Assembly: GCA_902385625.1 (NCBI GenBank)
Contig: CABMGE010000007.1
Coordinates: 1,565-65,564 of the forward strand
Source: an uncultured archaeon
GTDB lineage: Archaea > Nanobdellota > Nanobdellia > Pacearchaeales > GW2011-AR1
Reading direction: 5' to 3'
DNA: 64,000 nt
The translations under genes were made by a program, and so were the position numbers. Positions 3,296 through 17,332 of this stretch are shown here, one piece after another. Numbering within the stretch: the first letter of the stretch is position 1; every line of letters begins with the position of its first letter. The notes below the pieces were generated by a model. That model was not told the DNA's origin. It made no database searches and saw only the letters and a program-made list of their open reading frames with translations.

Positions 3296-5985
3296 AAAGA
3301 AAACGAATATTTGCAATCATTATGTTTATTCTAATACTAAATTTATTTTTAATTATAGGCTCTACAGCAGAGGATAAAAAGAATGATCCAAATAAAACCT
3401 TTGAAGAAAAAAAGCAACAACTTAACAATATGGGTTTTGATGTTGGAAAAGGAGGTGTTAATCCTGATAATTTTCAGTTATCTCCTGATAAAAAATCAGT
3501 CACTATATTAAAAAATGGAGCCTCTGAACTTATTGATGTAGCTAAAATTAAGGATAAACTTATAATTAAAATACCTGATGGAGCTATTTTAAAAGATGCA
3601 ACAGGCAATGAATATCATTTACCAAAAGATAATAAGGAATTAACTGTTCTTAATGGAAAAATAATTTCTGATAAAGATATTACACTTGGTTCTGAAAGTA
3701 AAATAAACAATGTTAAAATAAATACTAAAAATGATGAAACTGTTTCTATGAATCAAGATGGAGTAATTAATACAAAGGGAAAAGAAGCAGTTCTTACTGG
3801 AAGTGATGGAAAGATAATTGGAAAAATAAATGGAAGGGCTCAAATACAAGACCCTGGAAGCATTCTTTTAAAATCTGATGAAACAGGTACATCTAAGTTT
3901 ACAAATTATAAAGGAAGTATCTTTGAAGTCAGTTCAAATACTATGATTTATACTAAAGAGTCATCTAAAATAAATTCTGCAAAGGATTTTATAAAATATA
4001 ACGGAGATCTTTTAGTTTCAGTAACAAATCATGAAAATCAGATAAAAATATCTGCAAATGACAAGGATTATGGAAATATAGTTGTTCGTGAATTACCAAG
4101 CTCTGCTTCAGTTAGTTTAGATCTTAAACGCGAAGTGAATGGAAAGTCTTTTGATGTATTATTTCAATTTAGTGAAAAACCTCCTATAGTAAAAGGCAAT
4201 ATTGAAGGGCTTGGAACAAATATTGCAACTTTAACTCGGGAAACAAGTCCAAATGTTTCTCCATTTATGATCTATAATGGTAAAGAAATTAGTGAAAAAG
4301 TTGGAGTAATTGGAAATATGAATGATTTTGGAGGATTATCTAAATTTGATAATCCTGAACTTAAGAAATTATTTGTAGAATCAATGTCTACAAAGTTTTT
4401 TAGTAGTGATATAGAAGGTTTGACAAAGGTTCTTGGCAAAAATTCAGAGTTAGAGGGCTTGATAGTTGATCGGGCACTTAGAACAAATGAGGTTAATAGC
4501 AAGTTTGAAAATTTTAATTCTCTTATGGTAATGGCGAGAAATAATCCTGAAGAACAATTAAAATTAGTAAAAGCTTATGAAGGAGTAGTAGATTATAATC
4601 AAATTAACATAATTATGGGAAATGTTCGGAGTATTAGCAATGTTGGAGGTTATTCTAACCTTGATATTTCTGAAATAGCAAAAAATCCAGGCAAGTACAG
4701 TCAGATTGATAAAGAACTTGATAAACAAATAGATGAAATGAAGAGTTTAATACTAGATAATGTAAAAATTGATGGAGTTCCTGACAATTTTAATCGAATG
4801 TCTGATGAAGAAAGGAAACAGGCCCTGGAAAACTCCAAATTTTATAGCGCAAAGAGCTTAAAGACTGTTCTTGATTATTTACAGGGCAATTCTGAGTTGC
4901 AAGATTTAGTTGCAAAAAATACCAAGCTCTCGGAAAACAATCTTGCACTCGATGAAGGTGGTTTTAGACAACTGATTTCTCTTTCGCAAAATCCTGACCT
5001 TACAAAGCAATTATTATCTCTTGCAACTTACAAAGATCCTTCATCTGGATTTGATACTAAGAAAATGAGTGATATTTATTCAAGTCAGAGTTTTGTAGAT
5101 CTTACAAAAAGCATGGATTCAATTGACAGATGGTCTACTGCTCAAAGTATTTATAGAAATCTGGATATTAATGGAATGGGATATACTGACTCAAATATTA
5201 ATCAAGTTGGAAAAGAGATTATTTCAATAAATGAAGATTATTCTAATAGGCTTGTTGCAGATTCCAAAAGCAAAGTAATTATTGCAACAAATCCTGAGTT
5301 TTCAGATCAAACAAAAGACTTAACCCAGGGAATTATAAAAGCAGGTGTAAAGCAAGAAAATTTAGTTAGCTTTGAAGGTGGAGGAGACTCGATTAAAAAG
5401 ATACTTGATAATATAGAAAACACTAATGATGGGCTTATTTATTTTAATAATCATGGCAATGGAGGTTATCAGGTTCTTGGAAAACCTAATCCTGATGGAA
5501 CTATTTCTCCTGATCAAGAGATAAGTTATAAGCAACTTGGAGACAGTTTAATTAAGTCTGCTGAAAAAAATAATGGAGATTTAAGTAAAGTAACAGTTCT
5601 TCTTGATTCTTGTTATTCTTATGACTTTGCCAAGAATCTTTACAACTACATATCTGAAAATGGCAAGGTAGAGCAAATGCCAGTGGTTGTAACCTCTACA
5701 AATCGCGGCCAAGTTGGATTTTCAGGGCTTGCAAAATCAATTGGAGAGGAAGTAGAATCTGGAAAAGGAATTACTCTGGGTAATATTAATTCAGCAGGTA
5801 AAAAAGTCTTTTCATCTGAAGATATGTCAATATTTGTTCCAACAAAAAAAGGTGTTACTGCTATTGGCTCTTCAAATGACCAGGATAAAACAATTAAATC
5901 CAAACCTAGTTCTTCTTCTACTCCAAGTTATATTCAAGTAAGCCAACTAGACAGTTCAATACAACAGGAGTTGTCATATTCCTAA
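3292..5985 (+). CDS. large secreted protein with a C-terminal clan-CD (caspase/gingipain-like) peptidase-like domain
   Basis: N-terminal signal peptide. The C-terminal region carries a His-Gly ... Cys dyad (NNHGNGG ... LLDSCYSYD) spaced as in clan CD cysteine peptidases. Confidence 0.45.
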   Translation: MKRKRIFAIIMFILILNLFLIIGSTAEDKKNDPNKTFEEKKQQLNNMGFDVGKGGVNPDNFQLSPDKKSVTILKNGASELIDVAKIKDKLIIKIPDGAILKDATGNEYHLPKDNKELTVLNGKIISDKDITLGSESKINNVKINTKNDETVSMNQDGVINTKGKEAVLTGSDGKIIGKINGRAQIQDPGSILLKSDETGTSKFTNYKGSIFEVSSNTMIYTKESSKINSAKDFIKYNGDLLVSVTNHENQIKISANDKDYGNIVVRELPSSASVSLDLKREVNGKSFDVLFQFSEKPPIVKGNIEGLGTNIATLTRETSPNVSPFMIYNGKEISEKVGVIGNMNDFGGLSKFDNPELKKLFVESMSTKFFSSDIEGLTKVLGKNSELEGLIVDRALRTNEVNSKFENFNSLMVMARNNPEEQLKLVKAYEGVVDYNQINIIMGNVRSISNVGGYSNLDISEIAKNPGKYSQIDKELDKQIDEMKSLILDNVKIDGVPDNFNRMSDEERKQALENSKFYSAKSLKTVLDYLQGNSELQDLVAKNTKLSENNLALDEGGFRQLISLSQNPDLTKQLLSLATYKDPSSGFDTKKMSDIYSSQSFVDLTKSMDSIDRWSTAQSIYRNLDINGMGYTDSNINQVGKEIISINEDYSNRLVADSKSKVIIATNPEFSDQTKDLTQGIIKAGVKQENLVSFEGGGDSIKKILDNIENTNDGLIYFNNHGNGGYQVLGKPNPDGTISPDQEISYKQLGDSLIKSAEKNNGDLSKVTVLLDSCYSYDFAKNLYNYISENGKVEQMPVVVTSTNRGQVGFSGLAKSIGEEVESGKGITLGNINSAGKKVFSSEDMSIFVPTKKGVTAIGSSNDQDKTIKSKPSSSSTPSYIQVSQLDSSIQQELSYS

Positions 5986-6022
5986 TTACTATTAATCAAA
6001 AAGGGAAATGGGTTAAACTTCT

Positions 6023-6232
6023 TTAACAATTAACTGATACTCTTTGTTCTTCAATATCTTTTTCAGTTGCTTTGCAAATTTCACAATAGCCAATTTCATG
6101 AATATCTTTTATTTCTAGATTTGCATCGACTTTATGCCTGTAAATCATTACAATCATAACTTCGTTTGTTTCTCTATCTCTAAATGGTGGTTCCTTTAGC
6201 TTTATCTTGCAGTGTGGACATATTCCTAACAT
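6023..6232 (-). CDS. small zinc-ribbon protein
   Basis: 69 aa with CPHC...CEIC, i.e. two CxxC pairs. Confidence 0.4.
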   Translation of the reverse strand: MLGICPHCKIKLKEPPFRDRETNEVMIVMIYRHKVDANLEIKDIHEIGYCEICKATEKDIEEQRVSVNC

Positions 6233-6409
6233 TTTGTTTTTCTCCTGTCTATTTAATTAAAATATCGCTCCCGCGAGATGTCTTTTAGACATTTTGCAAT
6301 TTTTATCAGAAATAAATTCTGCTAAAAATTTTATTTTGAATTTTTTTCTCCTATACATTTAAGTTAAATATCGCTTTGCGAATGTTTATTTGATTTATTT
6401 ATCATGATT

Positions 6410-6706
6410 TTACCCCATAATATGCTCTTCATAATGGTTTAGCATATCCCTGAAAAGCGCTGCGTTTTCATATTCTTCTTTTCCAATTGCTTCGCTTAAC
6501 CGGGATTTTATTTGAGCTCTTATAGTTAATTTTTCCCTTAATTCATTTCTTTCAAATAATATATTTGTTATTGTTTCGAGTTCTGAATCAGTGGATTTTA
6601 CGTTTGAGCTCCATTCATTTTTGAATGCTTTCATGTAATACCATTCAAGTTCGCTTGTATTTTTCTTTTCCAGTTGTTCTTTTGAATATAGTTGTGTCTG
6701 TTCCAT
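6410..6706 (-). CDS. hypothetical protein
   Basis: 98-aa charged ORF with no motif. Confidence 0.4.
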   Translation of the reverse strand: MEQTQLYSKEQLEKKNTSELEWYYMKAFKNEWSSNVKSTDSELETITNILFERNELREKLTIRAQIKSRLSEAIGKEEYENAALFRDMLNHYEEHIMG

Positions 6707-6847
6707 TTCTTTTCTCTTGTTATTTTTATTTTTCTGTTATTTTTTGTTTTTATCCTCGACTTTTTATTAAAAGTATAAGGGAGCTCAAAAGATTTTTCTG
6801 CGTCCCGGGTGGGGGATAGCAGCGAAGTTTTGAGCCGCCTTATAATC

Positions 6848-9158: not shown

Positions 9159-10121
9159 TTAATTAAATAGCTCGCTTAAACTTTCTCCTTCACTAGTCCT
9201 ATAAATTGCTTCTGCAAATAATGGGATAAATGAAATTATCTCAACATTTTTTCCAGGAGTTTCAGGAAGCTTTAAAGTGTCTCCTACAAAAAATAAGTCA
9301 AAACAATCAGTTACTTTTTTTACTCCTTCTGTAAATAATCCATGAGTGCAATAGCCATAAGTTTTTAGTGCTCCTGCATTTTTTGCATATTCACATGCTT
9401 TAATAAGTGTTCCACCAGTGTCTACCATATCGTCAACAATAAAAACATTTTTATCTTTTATATCTCCGAGTATTTTAAAACTTTCAACTTCATTTGCTCT
9501 TTCCCTTGATTTGTAGCCTACAGCAACTTCTGTTATTCCTAGTTTTTTTGCAAAAGCTTTTGCTCTTGGTGCTCCTCCTGCATCTGTAGACATTATAACT
9601 AGATTTTCAAGGATCTTTGGATGATTTTCCTTGAGATGTTTTATAACAACAGGATAAGAGGAAAGATTATCTACTGGAACTGTATAAAATCCATCTATTG
9701 AGGAATTATGAAAATCAATTGTCAAGACTCTGTCTGCATAAAGACTTATAACATCTGCTACAACACTTGCAGAAATAGGAACTCTGGATTCATCTTTTCT
9801 ATCTTGTCTTGAGAACTTAAGATATGGAAACACATTGATTATTTCCTGTGCTGAAGATTTTTTAAGGCCCTGATTAATTAAACATAACTCTAAAAACCAG
9901 TCTGCAGGTCTTGAATTTGGATTGTGTATGAAGTAGCAATTTCTTTTTCTTACATTTAATTCAATTTTTGGTTTTATTTCACCATCTTTGAATCTTTTTA
10001 TATCGATCTTATTTAATTCAAACCCATTATTTCCTTTTTTAAGTTCCTGAGAGATTCCTTTTGCAAATTCCCAACCATAACCTTGTGGGTCTGCAAGGAG
10101 AGCGCATTTATGTACTGGCAT
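9159..10121 (-). CDS. prs: ribose-phosphate pyrophosphokinase (PRPP synthetase)
   Basis: Motifs KRFKDGEI, PYLKFSRQDRK, PISASVVADV, RVLTIDFH and the PRPP-binding loop VFIVDDMVDTGGTL are present. Confidence 0.85.
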   Translation of the reverse strand: MPVHKCALLADPQGYGWEFAKGISQELKKGNNGFELNKIDIKRFKDGEIKPKIELNVRKRNCYFIHNPNSRPADWFLELCLINQGLKKSSAQEIINVFPYLKFSRQDRKDESRVPISASVVADVISLYADRVLTIDFHNSSIDGFYTVPVDNLSSYPVVIKHLKENHPKILENLVIMSTDAGGAPRAKAFAKKLGITEVAVGYKSRERANEVESFKILGDIKDKNVFIVDDMVDTGGTLIKACEYAKNAGALKTYGYCTHGLFTEGVKKVTDCFDLFFVGDTLKLPETPGKNVEIISFIPLFAEAIYRTSEGESLSELFN

Positions 10122-11041: not shown

Positions 11042-11956
11042 TTACATTCTCTCCAAAATCTCTATACGCTTTTCAATTGGAGGATGAGTTGAAAATAATC
11101 CTTGTATTTTTCTTTTGAATGGATCTGAAATAAACAATGGAGCAACTGCCTTGTTTATTTTTTGTTTTTCCTGATCTGGAACATGTTCTTTTTCTATTTT
11201 TTTAAGTGCGCCTATAAGTCCTGTTGGAGACCTGATGAATTTAACAGCAGAGGCATCTGCCATATATTCTCTTTTTCTTGAAACAGCAAGTTGAACCAAT
11301 TGAACTACAATTGGAGCAAGAATTGCAAGAATAATTCCAATTACCATGAAAATTGCATTTCCTTTGCTATCATCGTCCCTGTTTCCTGAACTAAACCAAA
11401 GGCTTCTTAAAAATATTTCAGAAACTATTGCTATCATTCCAACAAGTACTGCAACAAGAGTCATAAATCTAATATCATAATTTGCAACATGAGAAAGTTC
11501 ATGGCCTAAAACTCCTTCAAGTTCTTGTTTATCTAATCTTTCAAGAGCACCAGATGTCACACAAATAACTGCATTCTTAGGATCTCTTCCTGATGCAAAT
11601 GCATTTATTTCAGAACTATCCATAACATAGAGTTTTGGCATTGGCATTCCTGAGGCAAGAGTTAATCCTTCGACAGAGTCGTAAAATCCTTTGTGAAGTC
11701 TTCTATCTGCAGGTTTTGCATTAACAGATGCAAGAGCAATATCTGCTGAATAATAGTATCCAACCCATACATAAATTATTGAGATAATTATTGCAGCAAT
11801 CATTATTAGAGTAAAGTAATCAGGACCAAGTGCTAAACCAATTACTGCGCCAAGTACAATAAAAACCATGAAAACAATTAGGATTAAGAAAAAAGATTTC
11901 CATTTATTAGTGGATATTTGATTATAAAATGATATTCTTGGTTCTTGTTTTTTCAT
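11042..11956 (-). CDS. htpX: M48 zinc metalloprotease HtpX
   Basis: HELSHV (HExxH) motif, N-terminal TM helices, length and layout of HtpX. Confidence 0.85.
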   Translation of the reverse strand: MKKQEPRISFYNQISTNKWKSFFLILIVFMVFIVLGAVIGLALGPDYFTLIMIAAIIISIIYVWVGYYYSADIALASVNAKPADRRLHKGFYDSVEGLTLASGMPMPKLYVMDSSEINAFASGRDPKNAVICVTSGALERLDKQELEGVLGHELSHVANYDIRFMTLVAVLVGMIAIVSEIFLRSLWFSSGNRDDDSKGNAIFMVIGIILAILAPIVVQLVQLAVSRKREYMADASAVKFIRSPTGLIGALKKIEKEHVPDQEKQKINKAVAPLFISDPFKRKIQGLFSTHPPIEKRIEILERM

Positions 11957-12025: not shown

Positions 12026-12382
12026 CTAATTAATCTCTTCAACTTTTGAATGATCGTAAGGAAGTGAATAATAAGGAAATCCCAGATCTGCGATTTTCAT
12101 TGATAGATCAAGTGCAAGATCAGAGAGTTCTTTTGCAGAATTTGCTTCAAGACTTAGGTGATAGGGTTTTTTATGAATGGAAAAAAATCCATTTTTATCC
12201 TTAAAACTAACTGAAGATAGTTCAGGTTTAGTGTGATAAACTGCAAGAACCATTGGAAGATCACTGACTAACTCTGTTATTTTCTCCAGTTCAGGAAAAT
12301 AATGACAACACAAACCCTTTTTTCCTGTTGGTGCACAATCTGTTCCTGCGCACCTTGGATAATAAGATATACTCACCGCCAT
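12026..12382 (-). CDS. hypothetical protein with an N-terminal Cys cluster (CAGTDCAPTGKKGLCC)
   Basis: 118-aa ORF with four Cys in its first 30 residues. Confidence 0.4.
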   Translation of the reverse strand: MAVSISYYPRCAGTDCAPTGKKGLCCHYFPELEKITELVSDLPMVLAVYHTKPELSSVSFKDKNGFFSIHKKPYHLSLEANSAKELSDLALDLSMKIADLGFPYYSLPYDHSKVEEIN

Positions 12383-12436
12383 TTTATTAAGATAAAAAAA
12401 TTTAGTTTATAAGAATTTGTATATCTGATTATTGTA

Positions 12437-12619
12437 TTATCTCGGCTTTATTAAAATATAAACACCTAGAATAAGGCAGATAAGGGCTACAATTGAAGAT
12501 TTATCCGGGATTGGAATAGGAAGCCAGCTAATCAATGCAGATGCTATAAGAATTGTTGCAATTATTTTATTCTCTGAGAATTTTCTTGGTTTCTCGTGTA
12601 TTAGTTCTATTTTTGGCAC
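12437..12619 (-). CDS. small two-helix membrane protein
   Basis: 60-aa hydrophobic ORF. Confidence 0.35.
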   Translation of the reverse strand: MPKIELIHEKPRKFSENKIIATILIASALISWLPIPIPDKSSIVALICLILGVYILIKPR

Positions 12620-12894
12620 TTTGAATTTCCTCCTTTTTTAGATAAATTTTTCAAAAACTTTTATGGTTTTTTGAAAATACCTCTGTCTCTTATATTAAAT
12701 ATAACAATTTGTTCTTTAAAAATATATTGATTAGTATTTGTAATTCAAGTTCTCTATCATTCTTACCAATTAGATTCATTATAGTCTTATTTTTATTTAC
12801 TCACCCCTAATTATTGAGGGAGAGATAAGGAAAAATAAGCGGTATTTTACAAGTAAAAAAATTGTAGGATTAATCTCAGAACAGTTTTGAATAA

Positions 12895-13188
12895 CTATAT
12901 GAACATAAGTGTAATTGTTAATGCAAAAAGCATTATAATAACTACTAAGTTTATTCGGCTCATACTTATGTAAAAAGAATATTTTTTGTCGTTTGGATGA
13001 GAATTATGGAAGATTTGCTTGTAATAAGGAATATCGTCGTAAGTAAATAGGCTATTTTTTATTACTTTGCCGATTTTAGGATACTTTTTTTTAGTATAGT
13101 TATAGAATTTGTATGTAAAAAATAATTCTTCAATGGATACTATTATAACTATAACAAATAGTAACTGAAATAGATTAATATTTTCCAT
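12895..13188 (-). CDS. small membrane protein
   Basis: 97 aa with N- and C-terminal TM helices. A TATA-like element repeated at 13217-13250 lies ~40 bp upstream. Confidence 0.35.
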   Translation of the reverse strand: MENINLFQLLFVIVIIVSIEELFFTYKFYNYTKKKYPKIGKVIKNSLFTYDDIPYYKQIFHNSHPNDKKYSFYISMSRINLVVIIMLFALTITLMFI

Positions 13189-13252
13189 TTTACCTCTTTT
13201 TATAGACTTGATAAGAATCTTCTGTTTAAAAATATATTGATTAAATCTCGAC

Positions 13253-14632
13253 CTAGTTTATCCTTGCAAATTTTTTTGTTTTTTCAATATGGTAGATGCA
13301 ATAATCATTATATCGGAAATCTGTTCCATTAGAATCCATTGAACTTTTACAACCGCCCCTGCAATATACTGCGTATTTGCATGACTTGCAATGTTTTACA
13401 AGTTTTTTAGGTTCTCGGTTATATGAAAAAGCTCCTTTTTTTAGCCATAATTCTTTTAATGGAGTTTTTCTAATGTTTCCTTCTACAAATTTATCATTTT
13501 GTATAGGGCATCCCTTTAAATTACCTTCTGCATCTACAGAACAACCTGAAAGTCCTGCTCCACAACCAGTCCAAAAACTATCTCTTAGATTTAGACTACC
13601 ATAATAACCCATACTGTCTCCTACACTAATATTTGTTATTTCTTTTAGCTCCTCTCTATATTTTGCAATCTTTTTACCAAATTCATAAAATTCTTCTTGT
13701 GAGATGGAGTCTGCTTTACTTAAACATCCTACTGGCAGAGCATAATATAGGTTCCAGGAATTTATCCTATTCTTTTTTATAAAATTTTTTACATTATCAA
13801 GATCGTTAAAATTCTTTTTTGTTATAGAAGTTGTTAGTCCAAAAGGTATCTTATATTTTTTGAAAAGATTAATAGTTTTTAATACTGATTTATAGACTCC
13901 TTTTTTATTTCTAAATTCATCATGAACTTTGCCTATTCCATCTAAACTTATATGGACATTAAATGTTTCTAACTTTTTTAATTTTTTAACTATATCCTCA
14001 TTTATTAGTGTGCCGTTAGTTGTTATTCCGATCTCAATTCCCTTTTTTCTTGCATAGGATAATATTTCAAACCAATCTTTTTTTAAAAAAGGCTCTCCTC
14101 CGGAGATATTTATTACAAAAACTTTTAACCTGGCGCAATCGTCAATAAATCTAAAACATTCCTCTTTTGTCATTTCATTTTTTAATTTAGCTCTTGAAGT
14201 GTTTCCGCAATGAGAACATCGAAGATTACAATTATTTGTGATCAACCAGGATATTTGATTAGGCCCTCTTAAGACAGGAGATATTGAATAATGTTCTTTA
14301 AATTTATAGTCTATAGAACCATTTAGCTTCACTAAACCGGTTTTAGACATAAATGATAGATAATTAAGGGCCATAGGAACAAGTAGGGCATAAGGGACCC
14401 GGGTTTCTTTAGACAATTCAAGAAGTATAGATTTTAATTGTTTTTTCCCATCAATCTTATTCAATAATTTAAAACCTATATTATTTATAAGAATTACTTT
14501 TAAGGTCTCGATATCAAAGATTGTATAACCGAAATCTTCAATCCTATATCTAAAATCGTTTTTTTGAGGTATTATATTCCTTAAATCCCCTAACATAGAA
14601 TTTCCAATAAATTCTGAAATCGCAAGAACCAT
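13253..14632 (-). CDS. radical SAM/SPASM-domain enzyme with a ~125-aa N-terminal extension (AlbA-like RiPP-maturase architecture)
   Basis: CNLRCSHC (CxxxCxxC) at about residue 128, a GGEPFL motif, and a C-terminal Cys-rich SPASM region (CGAG...C...CKSCKYAVYCRGGC). Confidence 0.8.
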   Translation of the reverse strand: MVLAISEFIGNSMLGDLRNIIPQKNDFRYRIEDFGYTIFDIETLKVILINNIGFKLLNKIDGKKQLKSILLELSKETRVPYALLVPMALNYLSFMSKTGLVKLNGSIDYKFKEHYSISPVLRGPNQISWLITNNCNLRCSHCGNTSRAKLKNEMTKEECFRFIDDCARLKVFVINISGGEPFLKKDWFEILSYARKKGIEIGITTNGTLINEDIVKKLKKLETFNVHISLDGIGKVHDEFRNKKGVYKSVLKTINLFKKYKIPFGLTTSITKKNFNDLDNVKNFIKKNRINSWNLYYALPVGCLSKADSISQEEFYEFGKKIAKYREELKEITNISVGDSMGYYGSLNLRDSFWTGCGAGLSGCSVDAEGNLKGCPIQNDKFVEGNIRKTPLKELWLKKGAFSYNREPKKLVKHCKSCKYAVYCRGGCKSSMDSNGTDFRYNDYCIYHIEKTKKFARIN

Positions 14633-14638
14633 TTTTAA

Positions 14639-14785
14639 TTATTGTATTTTAGGTCTGTAATGCGGAGTTCCGTATTTAACAGTAGCATGTAATGCCTGCC
14701 AAACCATTGCTCCAAAAATTGTTAAAAGGAATATAATTATTGCAATAGCAATACCCCAACACCTTTTTTTAACTTCTTTTTTCAT
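14639..14785 (-). CDS. unannotated 48-aa peptide (MKKEVKKRCWGIAIAIIIFLLTIFGAMVWQALHATVKYGTPHYRPKIQ); candidate substrate/precursor or small membrane protein
   Basis: ORF translated by hand on the minus strand. Its stop codon lies 6 nt upstream of the rSAM start codon, so the two genes are tightly coupled. It falls below the ORF-track length cutoff. Confidence 0.35.
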   Translation of the reverse strand: MKKEVKKRCWGIAIAIIIFLLTIFGAMVWQALHATVKYGTPHYRPKIQ

Positions 14786-14801
14786 AATAAGCTAGTAAGT
14801 T

Positions 14802-15437
14802 TTATTCTTCAAAATCAATGCTTGGCATTGCCTTGTTTGATTCAGGAATCTTAAGGAAGTCTTTCTTTTGTCTTCCATAAAGATTGAAAAAGAAAACTCC
14901 TGGGAATTTCTCAGAAGAGTTTTGAAGTTCAAGTACTGAATCATTGTAATATTGTCTTGCATAAGCTACTTTATCTTCTATTGCTGAAAGTTCAGTTTGT
15001 AACTGAAGGAAATTTTCATTTGCCTTAAGATTTGGATAGTTTTCTGCAACTGCGAATAATCTTCCAAGTGCACCTTGCAACTGGTCTCCTGCTTTTACTC
15101 TTTTTGCAACATCTCCACCTTTAAGAAGTGAAGCTCTTGCATTTGTAACTTCTGTGAATATCTTTTTTTCATGCTTTGCATAACCTGAAACAGTTTTAAC
15201 AAGAGCTGGAACAAGGTCTGCTCTTTTCTTTAGTTGAACATCAATTTGAGAAAGTGAATTATCAATTCTGTTTTCAAGAACAACAAATCGGTTATAATAG
15301 TAGATAAATATAAAGGCAATTATTACGACAAGTACTGCAAATATAATCCCTATAATTAAAGCTAGTCCTAGTACCATATTTTTTATAATTAATCTGGATT
15401 TATAAAGGTTTTGAATAAGATTAATGCCTCTTGGCAT
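14802..15437 (-). CDS. lemA: LemA family protein
   Basis: N-terminal TM helix followed by QLKKRADLVPALVKTVSGYAKHEKK and NYPNLKANENF...YARQYYND motifs. Confidence 0.8.
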   Translation of the reverse strand: MPRGINLIQNLYKSRLIIKNMVLGLALIIGIIFAVLVVIIAFIFIYYYNRFVVLENRIDNSLSQIDVQLKKRADLVPALVKTVSGYAKHEKKIFTEVTNARASLLKGGDVAKRVKAGDQLQGALGRLFAVAENYPNLKANENFLQLQTELSAIEDKVAYARQYYNDSVLELQNSSEKFPGVFFFNLYGRQKKDFLKIPESNKAMPSIDFEE

Positions 15438-17130: not shown

Positions 17131-17233
17131 AAATTTTCACACCAAGTTAGGTATTTAAAATTAGTGTTTACTAAAAGTGTTTTAATTATTAATTAAAGTT
17201 AAATAGAGCAATTTCTTCTGTTAAAGTATTAAA

Positions 17234-17305
17234 GCTCCCATAGTTCAGTGGATAGAATGCGACCTTGCGGAGGTTGAGACCGGAGTTCGAATCTTCGTGG
17301 GGGCG
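17234..17305 (+). tRNA. tRNA-Arg (anticodon GCG)
   Basis: Hand-folded cloverleaf: acceptor gctccca/tgggggc, D-stem gttc/gaat, anticodon stem cgacc/ggttg with loop ttGCGga, T-arm cggag-ttcgaat-cttcg, discriminator G. Several G-U pairs; no encoded CCA. Confidence 0.7.
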
Positions 17306-17322
17306 TTTATCCTTAGGGTTAA
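17295..17322 (+). repeat. att-like repeat copy A (tRNA-Arg 3' end plus 17 nt downstream)
   Basis: tcgtgggggcgtttatccttagggttaa recurs at 18411-18439 and 19031-19060. Confidence 0.6.
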
Positions 17323-17332
17323 CAAACACCAC

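Follow-up and report, generated by a model that had tools for sequence, protein, structure and literature searches.

In a 64-kb AT-rich stretch of DNA from an uncultured archaeon (here called the window), a gene for a radical S-adenosylmethionine (SAM)/SPASM enzyme of 459 amino acids (aa) lies immediately downstream of a gene for a 48-aa membrane peptide with a conserved C-terminal tail. Both are on the minus strand, the peptide gene at 14639 to 14785 (recognized as an open reading frame [ORF]) and the enzyme gene at 13253 to 14632 (recognized as an ORF with Pfam matches). Exactly 6 nucleotides (nt) (ttaaaa; 14633 to 14638) separate the stop codon of the peptide gene from the ATG of the enzyme gene, as the initial annotation of this DNA had pointed out, and a Shine-Dalgarno sequence is not recognizable at this junction. 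That annotation regarded the 48-aa ORF as unannotated; it was indeed absent from the ORF track then used, but the public record P0121 lists it as an “Uncharacterised protein [uncultured archaeon],” and NCBI holds both proteins on one contig of 91.6 kb. Because the enzyme combines a predicted recognition element (RRE) for peptides that are made by the ribosome and modified after translation (RiPPs) with radical SAM and SPASM domains, because the two genes are tightly coupled, co-occur universally, and co-vary, and because the tail is invariant, we lean, on balance, toward an enzyme-substrate module of two genes in which the enzyme would modify the C-terminal tail of a membrane-anchored protein.

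The 48-aa peptide begins with MKKEVKKR, continues with a predicted transmembrane helix at residues 10 to 28 (14702 to 14758, minus strand; Kyte-Doolittle score of 2.59 in a 19-residue window), and ends with QALHATVKYGTPHYRPKIQ. Its conserved C-terminal motif, YGTPHYRP, occupies residues 38 to 45 (14651 to 14674, minus strand), is followed by K-I-Q and the stop codon, and is the proposed site of modification and/or recognition. Across the family, the last 11 to 14 residues read [TK]-Y-G-T-P-x-[YHF]-R-P-[KR]-[VI]-x, and the tail follows the pattern Y-G-[TVA]-P-x-[YHF]-R-P-[KR]-x(1-4)-stop. Tyr, Gly, Pro, Arg, and the second Pro are invariant in all 49 distinct tail sequences, in which Thr is found in 44 (with Val or Ala in the other 5), Tyr, His, or Phe at position +5 in 48, and Lys or Arg at position +8 in 44; the distance from the RP to the stop codon is 2 to 5 residues in every one. 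A conserved Cys is absent from these 49 sequences, and the His and Trp of the C terminus of the window peptide are not conserved in the family.

The proteins bearing this tail range from 38 to 186 aa with approximately one to five transmembrane helices, and in all 50 members examined the last helix ends 1 to 19 residues (mostly 7 to 12) before the motif. No conservation was seen upstream of the last helix across the family, and the tail is the sole conserved part of otherwise unrelated membrane proteins. The initial annotation had offered a crosslinking substrate and a membrane helix as alternatives for the 48-aa peptide; the data instead point to both, as a transmembrane anchor is joined to a conserved 11-residue tail. 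Judged by its conservation and its translational coupling to the enzyme, the small ORF is a real gene rather than a spurious one.

Orthologous loci were gathered through the contigs of homologs and through a metagenome scan with the ortholog alignment, which gave 19 loci with readable flanks (17 nonredundant; enzyme identity of 41 to 79%). The initial annotation had made its case depend on finding the peptide gene beside orthologous enzyme genes, and all 19 loci carry at least one adjacent gene for a tail-bearing membrane protein of 39 to 186 aa, a putative linked ribosomal precursor with a conserved region of the kind by which RiPP loci are recognized. The junction spacing ranges mostly from a 4-nt overlap to a 6-nt gap, with a 4-nt ATGA overlap in loci L003, L100, L101, and L104, 0 to 3 nt in L001, L002, L097, L103, and L105, and 6 nt in the window. 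Among the 1.2 million residues obtained by translating the window and 100 fetched loci in all six frames, the pattern YG.P..RP matched 20 times (18 nonredundant), versus 0.34 matches expected by composition. Every match was the extreme C terminus of a transmembrane protein adjoining an ortholog of the enzyme, and the pattern was absent from the roughly 80 loci with nonorthologous radical SAM genes and from the rest of the window. These linkage statistics (an invariant motif at 19 of 19 loci versus 0.34 expected) effectively refute the explanation that a housekeeping SPASM enzyme, whether AhbD-NirJ-like, anSME-like, or a pterin methyltransferase, stands beside an unrelated or spurious small ORF with no functional link; together with the family comparisons below, they leave that explanation extremely improbable.

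A profile of the tail searched against 1.84 billion representative proteins returned 29 members (clusters at 50% identity), and against 5.8 billion proteins it returned 15 matches; all 29 and all 15 end in the motif. A single-sequence search of the 5.8-billion-protein set with the 48-aa peptide recovered only the peptide itself. The tail family is rare and occurs mostly in DPANN-type archaea, plus single contigs labeled Thermoplasmatota and Patescibacteria.

The tail of the window peptide (...TVKYGTPHYRPKIQ) can be compared with those of two tandem copies in L001 (...TVKYGTPSYRPKINN and ...STKYGTPIYRPKINN), of a gene missed by annotators in L002 (...MVKYGTPHYRPQVE), of a 186-aa protein with five transmembrane helices in L003 (...GTYGVPLHRPNQK), of a 166-aa protein in L100 (...ATYGTPTHRPKVK), and of two of the most divergent members, in L104 (...VMYGAPVYRTRLE) and the GC-rich L105 (...AYGAPVHRPRLAASG). 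In the Thermoplasmatota-labeled locus L098, both tail genes are downstream of the enzyme gene, and in L025 the enzyme gene is flanked by a tail gene at either end. Tail type co-varies with enzyme clade in the sequences compared: enzymes at least 60% identical to that of the window pair with single-helix peptides of 42 to 59 aa ending in VKYGTP[HNS]YRPK, and the clade at 44 to 51% identity has mostly longer multihelix partners (78 to 186 aa) ending in STYGTPI[YHF]RPK.

Some of these loci have features of their own. In L098 (5414 to 6748), each tail peptide is followed by a paralogous single-helix protein of approximately 145 aa (5587 to 6024 and 6311 to 6748), the first of which carries “EPFHRP” just after its transmembrane helix, reminiscent of the tail motif; it might act as an additional component or as another type of substrate. 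The Patescibacteria-labeled L097 (GCA_043807255.1) contains a tail gene, the enzyme gene, and an alpha/beta hydrolase gene on the opposite strand, as do the Nanoarchaeota-labeled L099 and L101, an arrangement that reflects either misbinning or transfer between domains among co-occurring ultrasmall organisms. In L103 (244 to 498; P0134), an N-terminal zinc ribbon (CPKCG...CKNCG) is fused to a transmembrane helix and the tail, and a 47-aa ribbon-helix-helix-like ORF precedes the gene. L002 (1 to 1278) encodes another, different radical SAM/SPASM protein (462 aa), 3.7 kb upstream of the module.

Pfam places a Radical_SAM domain (PF04055) at residues 130 to 284 of the window enzyme (E = 7e-29) and a SPASM domain (PF13186) at residues 357 to 419 (25.4 bits versus a cutoff of 21.5). 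The cysteines of the radical SAM [4Fe-4S] cluster, C135, C139, and C142, can be read directly in CNLRCSHC (14207 to 14230, minus strand) and are invariant in 43 full-length orthologs with identities of 41 to 100%. The CxxxCxxC motif reported in the initial annotation is thus present, although at these positions rather than near residue 128, behind an N-terminal extension of approximately 125 to 130 aa. The C-terminal SPASM cluster that was also reported was recovered as a full seven-Cys motif, C357-x12-G370-x4-C375...C415-x2-C418-x5-C424-x3-C428...C445 (13298 to 13564, minus strand; delimited by Pfam and ortholog conservation), which matches the signature Cx9-15Gx4C...Cx2Cx5Cx3C...C for two auxiliary Fe-S clusters. 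C357, C375, C415, C418, C424, and C428 are invariant among the orthologs, and at C445 and C303 conservation is 90% or higher. With its CxxxCxxC motif and a barrel modeled with high confidence, the enzyme belongs to the radical SAM superfamily and its SPASM subfamily and, by its modeled fold, to the RRE-bearing group.

The enzyme is outside every curated equivalog family tested, and no NCBIfam equivalog model reached its cutoff. The best model was that of the nif11-class peptide maturases (177 bits versus a cutoff of 725), followed by NirJ1, AhbD, NirJ2, MftC (159 versus 265 bits), and a GDL-motif maturase; all of these best subcutoff scores were 177 bits or lower, and the cutoffs of the models are 265 to 725. 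A profile of the 43 orthologs searched against the PDB sequences matched anSME, SkfB, CteB, SuiB, and PqqE, with anSME as the best match (E = 7e-26). That public record P0001 names the enzyme a “7,8-dihydro-6-hydroxymethylpterin dimethyltransferase,” that NirJ1, AhbD, and NirJ2 are among the best NCBIfam scores, and that anSME is the best PDB sequence match would all suit an enzyme unrelated to its small neighbor. However, the NCBIfam scores are far below the cutoffs, the AhbD, NirJ, and anSME matches start after residue 120 and so lie outside the RRE domain, and none of the loci is flanked by genes for heme, sulfatase, or pterin functions; the pterin methyltransferase name found no support in the domain, fold, or context analysis. 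The profile alignment to anSME starts at residue 133 and runs through the SPASM domain, whereas those to CteB and SuiB reach into their N-terminal RRE regions, that of SuiB from residue 24. An enzyme-only scan of genome contigs, whose patterns were too specific, returned only distant radical SAM genes.

The AlphaFold model of the whole enzyme (mean predicted local distance difference test [pLDDT] score of 90.5; predicted template modeling score of 0.89) has the order helix (residues 2 to 19), three strands plus three helices (22 to 100), barrel, and SPASM domain. Searched against the PDB with Foldseek, this model matched SuiB first, over its full length (463 columns, approximately 15% identity), and then SkfB, PqqE, and anSME, with TigE further down. 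The N-terminal region (14333 to 14629, minus strand) is predicted by AlphaFold and Foldseek to be an RRE/PqqD-like winged helix-turn-helix domain, a fold that the initial annotation had proposed to look for there, with strands at residues 27 to 31, 36 to 40, and 46 to 49 and helices at 51 to 59, 66 to 77, and 81 to 98 (pLDDT of 88 to 96). The order of secondary structure elements is the same in the whole-protein model and in a model of the isolated domain (pLDDT of 88). Almost all Foldseek matches of the isolated domain were RREs, including TbiB1 with a bound leader (template modeling score of 0.74; root mean square deviation of 3.1 Å), PqqD, McbB, CteB, the PbtF RRE, and the lasso-peptide protein B1; target template modeling scores for free-standing RRE chains were 0.64 to 0.74, and several of the matched RREs were solved with a leader peptide bound. 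The RRE assignment is thus one of modeled fold, not of sequence. The architecture of RRE, radical SAM, and SPASM domains argues for a RiPP maturase, as the initial annotation had held, rather than for anSME, which lacks the N-terminal domain. The term “AlbA-like” used there fits this architecture but not the chemistry, given a tail without conserved Cys and NCBIfam sactipeptide models far below their cutoffs.

Outside these two genes, the surroundings of the module vary. A LemA-family gene (14802 to 15437, minus strand; Pfam LemA, E = 2e-52) ends 16 nt before the peptide gene and is probably on one transcript with the module, but it is not a conserved partner; we rejected it as such because it stands beside the module only in the window and in L001, the closest relative. 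Synteny of the module with both PRPP synthetase and LemA is likewise confined to these two loci (9159 to 10121 and 14802 to 15437 in the window; 1954 to 2916 and 4082 to 4657 in L001). Downstream, also on the minus strand, are genes for a 97-aa membrane protein (12895 to 13188), a 60-aa membrane protein (12437 to 12619), a 118-aa Cys-rich protein (12026 to 12382; an ORF), and an HtpX-type M48 protease (11042 to 11956; 1.3 kb downstream of the module). The 118-aa ORF does carry the N-terminal cluster CAGTDCAPTGKKGLCC ascribed to it in the initial annotation, and it appears to be an orphan without a link to the radical SAM module. None of these four proteins has a homolog in any related locus, for which reason we rejected them as parts of the system; the first three match no Pfam family, and the 118-aa protein also matches no NCBIfam model. 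The extension of the locus to the two small membrane proteins and the 118-aa protein, suggested in the initial annotation, is therefore not upheld, these genes also having a promoter-like element of their own.

That element was originally described as a repeated 22-mer; the repeat exists, but its exact shared core is the 19-mer TAATCAATATATTTTTAAA, at 12715 to 12733 upstream of the 60-aa gene (a context feature outside the module) and at 13225 to 13243 between the enzyme stop codon and the 97-aa gene, both on the minus strand. It has only these two matches in the window, even when three mismatches are allowed, and lies within a block of similarity of approximately 33 nt. The two copies probably represent an archaeal promoter of the TATA type, or a regulator site, common to both genes, and because this TATA-like sequence repeats after the enzyme stop codon, the repeat suggests that the downstream small genes are transcription units apart from the enzyme. 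A sigma-70 promoter scan was rejected as evidence, since the counts equaled the shuffled expectation and the organism is archaeal.

The module and the three orphan genes lie between LemA and the HtpX-type protease in the window. LemA and HtpX-type protease genes are often adjacent in other genomes, and the position of the module and the orphans between them would be consistent with insertion. The sole tRNA in the window, tRNA-Arg(GCG) at 17234 to 17305 (plus strand), overlaps an ORF of 47 aa on the other strand (17189 to 17332) that is spurious. At other loci, the module has among its neighbors toxin-antitoxin genes and genes for DNA polymerase B, RNase J, a NUDIX hydrolase, and, on the opposite strand, an alpha/beta hydrolase. 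Besides the tail gene, no neighbor recurs across the orthologous loci, and no protease or transporter is conserved there, so the machinery for leader removal, export, and release of a mature peptide that also marks RiPP loci was not found among the conserved genes. In this comparison of loci, the module is limited to two genes because no other neighbor is conserved.

From the architecture, fold, conservation, and gene linkage, we infer that the tail is the substrate, and we propose the following chemistry, timing, and topology on the same grounds. Through its RRE, the cytoplasmic enzyme would capture either the tail or the segment next to the membrane, reductively cleave SAM, abstract a hydrogen atom from a tail residue, and install an oxidative modification, most likely an intramolecular crosslink with the invariant Tyr. 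By analogy with RrrB and WprB, that Tyr could be joined to the likewise invariant Arg six residues further on; a link between the Tyr ring and the Arg side chain is a tentative suggestion drawn from that analogy. YG[TVA] and [YHF]RP presumably also fit the aromatic-x-x pattern of three-residue cyclophanes. Thr at position +2 was rejected as an essential target given its replacement by Val or Ala, and neither it nor the second aromatic residue is likely to be a required partner in the reaction, because both can be replaced. Sactipeptide or thioether chemistry was rejected for want of a conserved Cys in the tail, and the logic of pyrroloquinoline quinone (PQQ) or mycofactocin was ruled out, as the tail has no Glu and no C-terminal Tyr. 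Because the last transmembrane helix is within approximately 20 residues of the C terminus, it would insert after translation ends, leaving time in the cytoplasm for modification, much as anSME works on sulfatases ahead of their export.

A competing explanation is that the tail merely docks, i.e., that it binds the RRE and thereby recruits or regulates the enzyme at the membrane, where the real target is a lipid, a cofactor precursor, or another protein. RREs are binding modules, a tail that alone is conserved among unrelated membrane proteins is what a docking motif would look like, and the radical SAM core shows about as much similarity to enzymes that do not act on peptides (AhbD and NirJ in heme synthesis and the lipid enzyme GDGT-MAS). 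To our knowledge, however, the RRE-bound partner is always the substrate in the characterized RRE-radical SAM-SPASM enzymes (SuiB, CteB, PqqD/E, and MftB/C), and that precedent argues against docking. The multispan topology predictions and the zinc-ribbon fusion put the tail outside, beyond the reach of a cytoplasmic enzyme, no gene for an alternative substrate is conserved nearby, and the tandem or flanking duplicates of tail genes in L001, L025, and L098 are typical of precursor peptides. We thus regard docking as quite unlikely.

As for topology, members with two transmembrane helices have an acidic N terminus and a K/R-rich loop that favor a tail on the outer face; in members with three and five helices, K/R-rich loops alternate and lie on the side opposite the tail; and the zinc ribbon-helix-tail fusion P0134 points to a cytoplasmic N terminus with the tail outside. 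These features make it probable that the tail is on the outer face of the membrane. If the module instead produced a classical secreted RiPP, the basic N terminus and hydrophobic helix would serve as a leader or signal that is cleaved after modification by signal peptidase or another membrane protease, freeing a peptide of approximately 12 to 14 residues (TVKYGTPHYRPKIQ) as a signal or toxin. The members of 42 to 59 aa do resemble signal peptides, with a K/R-rich start, a hydrophobic core, and, ahead of the motif, small residues (S/T/A/G/M); the enzyme is built like a RiPP maturase; and the HtpX-type protease is encoded close by in the window. Many members, though, have two to five transmembrane helices or a zinc ribbon before the tail and are not leader-like, no conserved protease or exporter stands beside the module in any locus, the HtpX gene is not found at related loci, and the hydrophobic stretch of approximately 19 to 21 residues has the length of a transmembrane helix and exceeds typical signal-peptide cores. 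Release as a secreted RiPP therefore seems rather unlikely to us, and because of the multihelix carriers and the lack of a conserved protease, we favor a modified product that would most likely stay tethered to the membrane.

Several points weigh against the enzyme-substrate module that we favor. The Foldseek E values for the isolated N-terminal domain are modest (3.8e-3), the Pfam PqqD family (PF05402) scores below its cutoff in the window enzyme (14.2 versus 23.4 bits) and reaches only subthreshold matches in 6 of 32 orthologs (best E = 0.0068), and a profile of the N-terminal region searched against the PDB sequences found nothing significant. The substrate status of the tail is drawn from gene linkage and architecture. 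The tail would need to be both recognition element and core, which is unusual for RRE-dependent systems, and not every position in it is essential, as Ala replaces the second aromatic residue in one case and Thr replaces the second Pro in another (RT, in one further divergent member). The counts of Lys and Arg on either side of the last transmembrane helix are equal on average (2.9 versus 3.0), a tie that favors neither orientation for single-helix members, and an outward-facing tail would require the enzyme to act before insertion.

A bolder and doubtful extension of the enzyme-substrate module brings these elements together: the enzyme might crosslink the tail (e.g., Tyr to Arg) of tail anchored-like membrane proteins before the last helix inserts, so that a rigid peptide would be displayed, permanently tethered, on the outside of DPANN-type archaea. 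Such a “membrane-anchored RiPP” would never be released and might help to attach to or recognize a host, or it might act as a redox group derived from Tyr and bound to the membrane.

We found no description of the tail motif or of membrane-anchored radical SAM substrates in open-access papers and bioRxiv. RRE-bearing radical SAM/SPASM maturases are a major source of new peptide chemistry, and nearly all studied cases that we know of are bacterial, with soluble precursors of leader and core that undergo cleavage and export. The module would differ from the described cases that we found in that its putative substrate is the C-terminal tail of varied integral membrane proteins, without leader-type conservation, protease, or exporter. 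The archaea that carry it have small genomes and can synthesize only a limited range of compounds. Should the tail be the substrate, the module would represent a new family of precursors, probably with a new type of crosslink, would indicate that enzymes of the RiPP type are able to modify membrane proteins in situ, and would offer a compact two-gene system that is directly testable in E. coli. The tail may further mark a surface feature relevant to the interaction of episymbiotic archaea with their hosts.

The SPASM enzymes anSME and QhpD modify a protein, rather than the precursor of a natural product, in the cytoplasm before its export. Among PDB sequences, anSME is the closest to the core and SPASM domain of the window enzyme, and its target, C/S-x-P-x-R, loosely resembles G-T-P-x-x-R. 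It differs in that its match, from residue 133, is outside the RRE, the tail has an invariant Gly at the position of the modified Cys or Ser, and the spacing of the Arg is different; the anSME model TIGR03942 scored 87 bits versus a cutoff of 349, the window enzyme has an RRE by its modeled fold, and no sulfatase gene is nearby. PqqE/PqqD and MftC/MftB likewise combine a SPASM enzyme with a PqqD-type RRE, and the Tyr that they act on belongs to a short, conserved motif at the C terminus, but the tail lacks the Glu partner of PQQ and the C-terminal Val-Tyr of mycofactocin, and their accessory genes are absent from the loci. The corresponding models stayed below their cutoffs (MftC, 159 versus 265 bits; PqqE, 78 versus 381 bits), and the precursor motifs (C-terminal GVY and E-x3-Y) are absent. 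The AhbC, AhbD, and NirJ models scored 139 to 173 bits versus cutoffs of 500 to 650, with matches that begin past residue 120 and span the core and SPASM domain, and no ahb or nir genes occur at any locus.

CteB, AlbA, and SkfB share with the present enzyme an RRE, a radical SAM domain, and a SPASM or twitch domain, and CteB and SkfB are among its top sequence and structure matches. Their substrates provide Cys donors, however, whereas the tail family has no conserved Cys, and the sactipeptide models were far from their cutoffs (StsB, 113 versus 625 bits; SkfB, 79 versus 300 bits; PapB, 101 versus 340 bits).

The closest counterpart in structure is SuiB/StrB, which forms the Lys-Trp crosslink of streptide: it has the same N-terminal RRE, radical SAM barrel, and two-cluster SPASM domain, SuiB is the best full-length structural match, and its partner too is a small adjacent co-encoded peptide with a short conserved motif near the C terminus. 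The streptide operon encodes a dedicated transporter that exports or cleaves the precursors, which are soluble. The present system differs in its identity of approximately 15%, its score with the related WgkB NCBIfam model (125 bits versus a cutoff of 650), its integral membrane partner without a conserved transporter, and a motif without a Trp or Lys pair. In chemistry, RrrB joins the gamma carbon of Arg to the ortho carbon of Tyr at the C terminus of its precursor (PMC9389541), and WprB joins C-5 of Trp to the gamma carbon of Arg near that of its own (PMC11851443). Both form aromatic ring-Arg crosslinks near a C terminus, which recalls the invariant Tyr and Arg six residues apart in the tail, but they are streptococcal and Xenorhabdus enzymes with soluble precursors, and no family-level sequence model for them matched. 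In its mode of action, the module thus most likely resembles the RRE-dependent radical SAM/SPASM peptide maturases of the class of SuiB/StrB, RrrB, and CteB.

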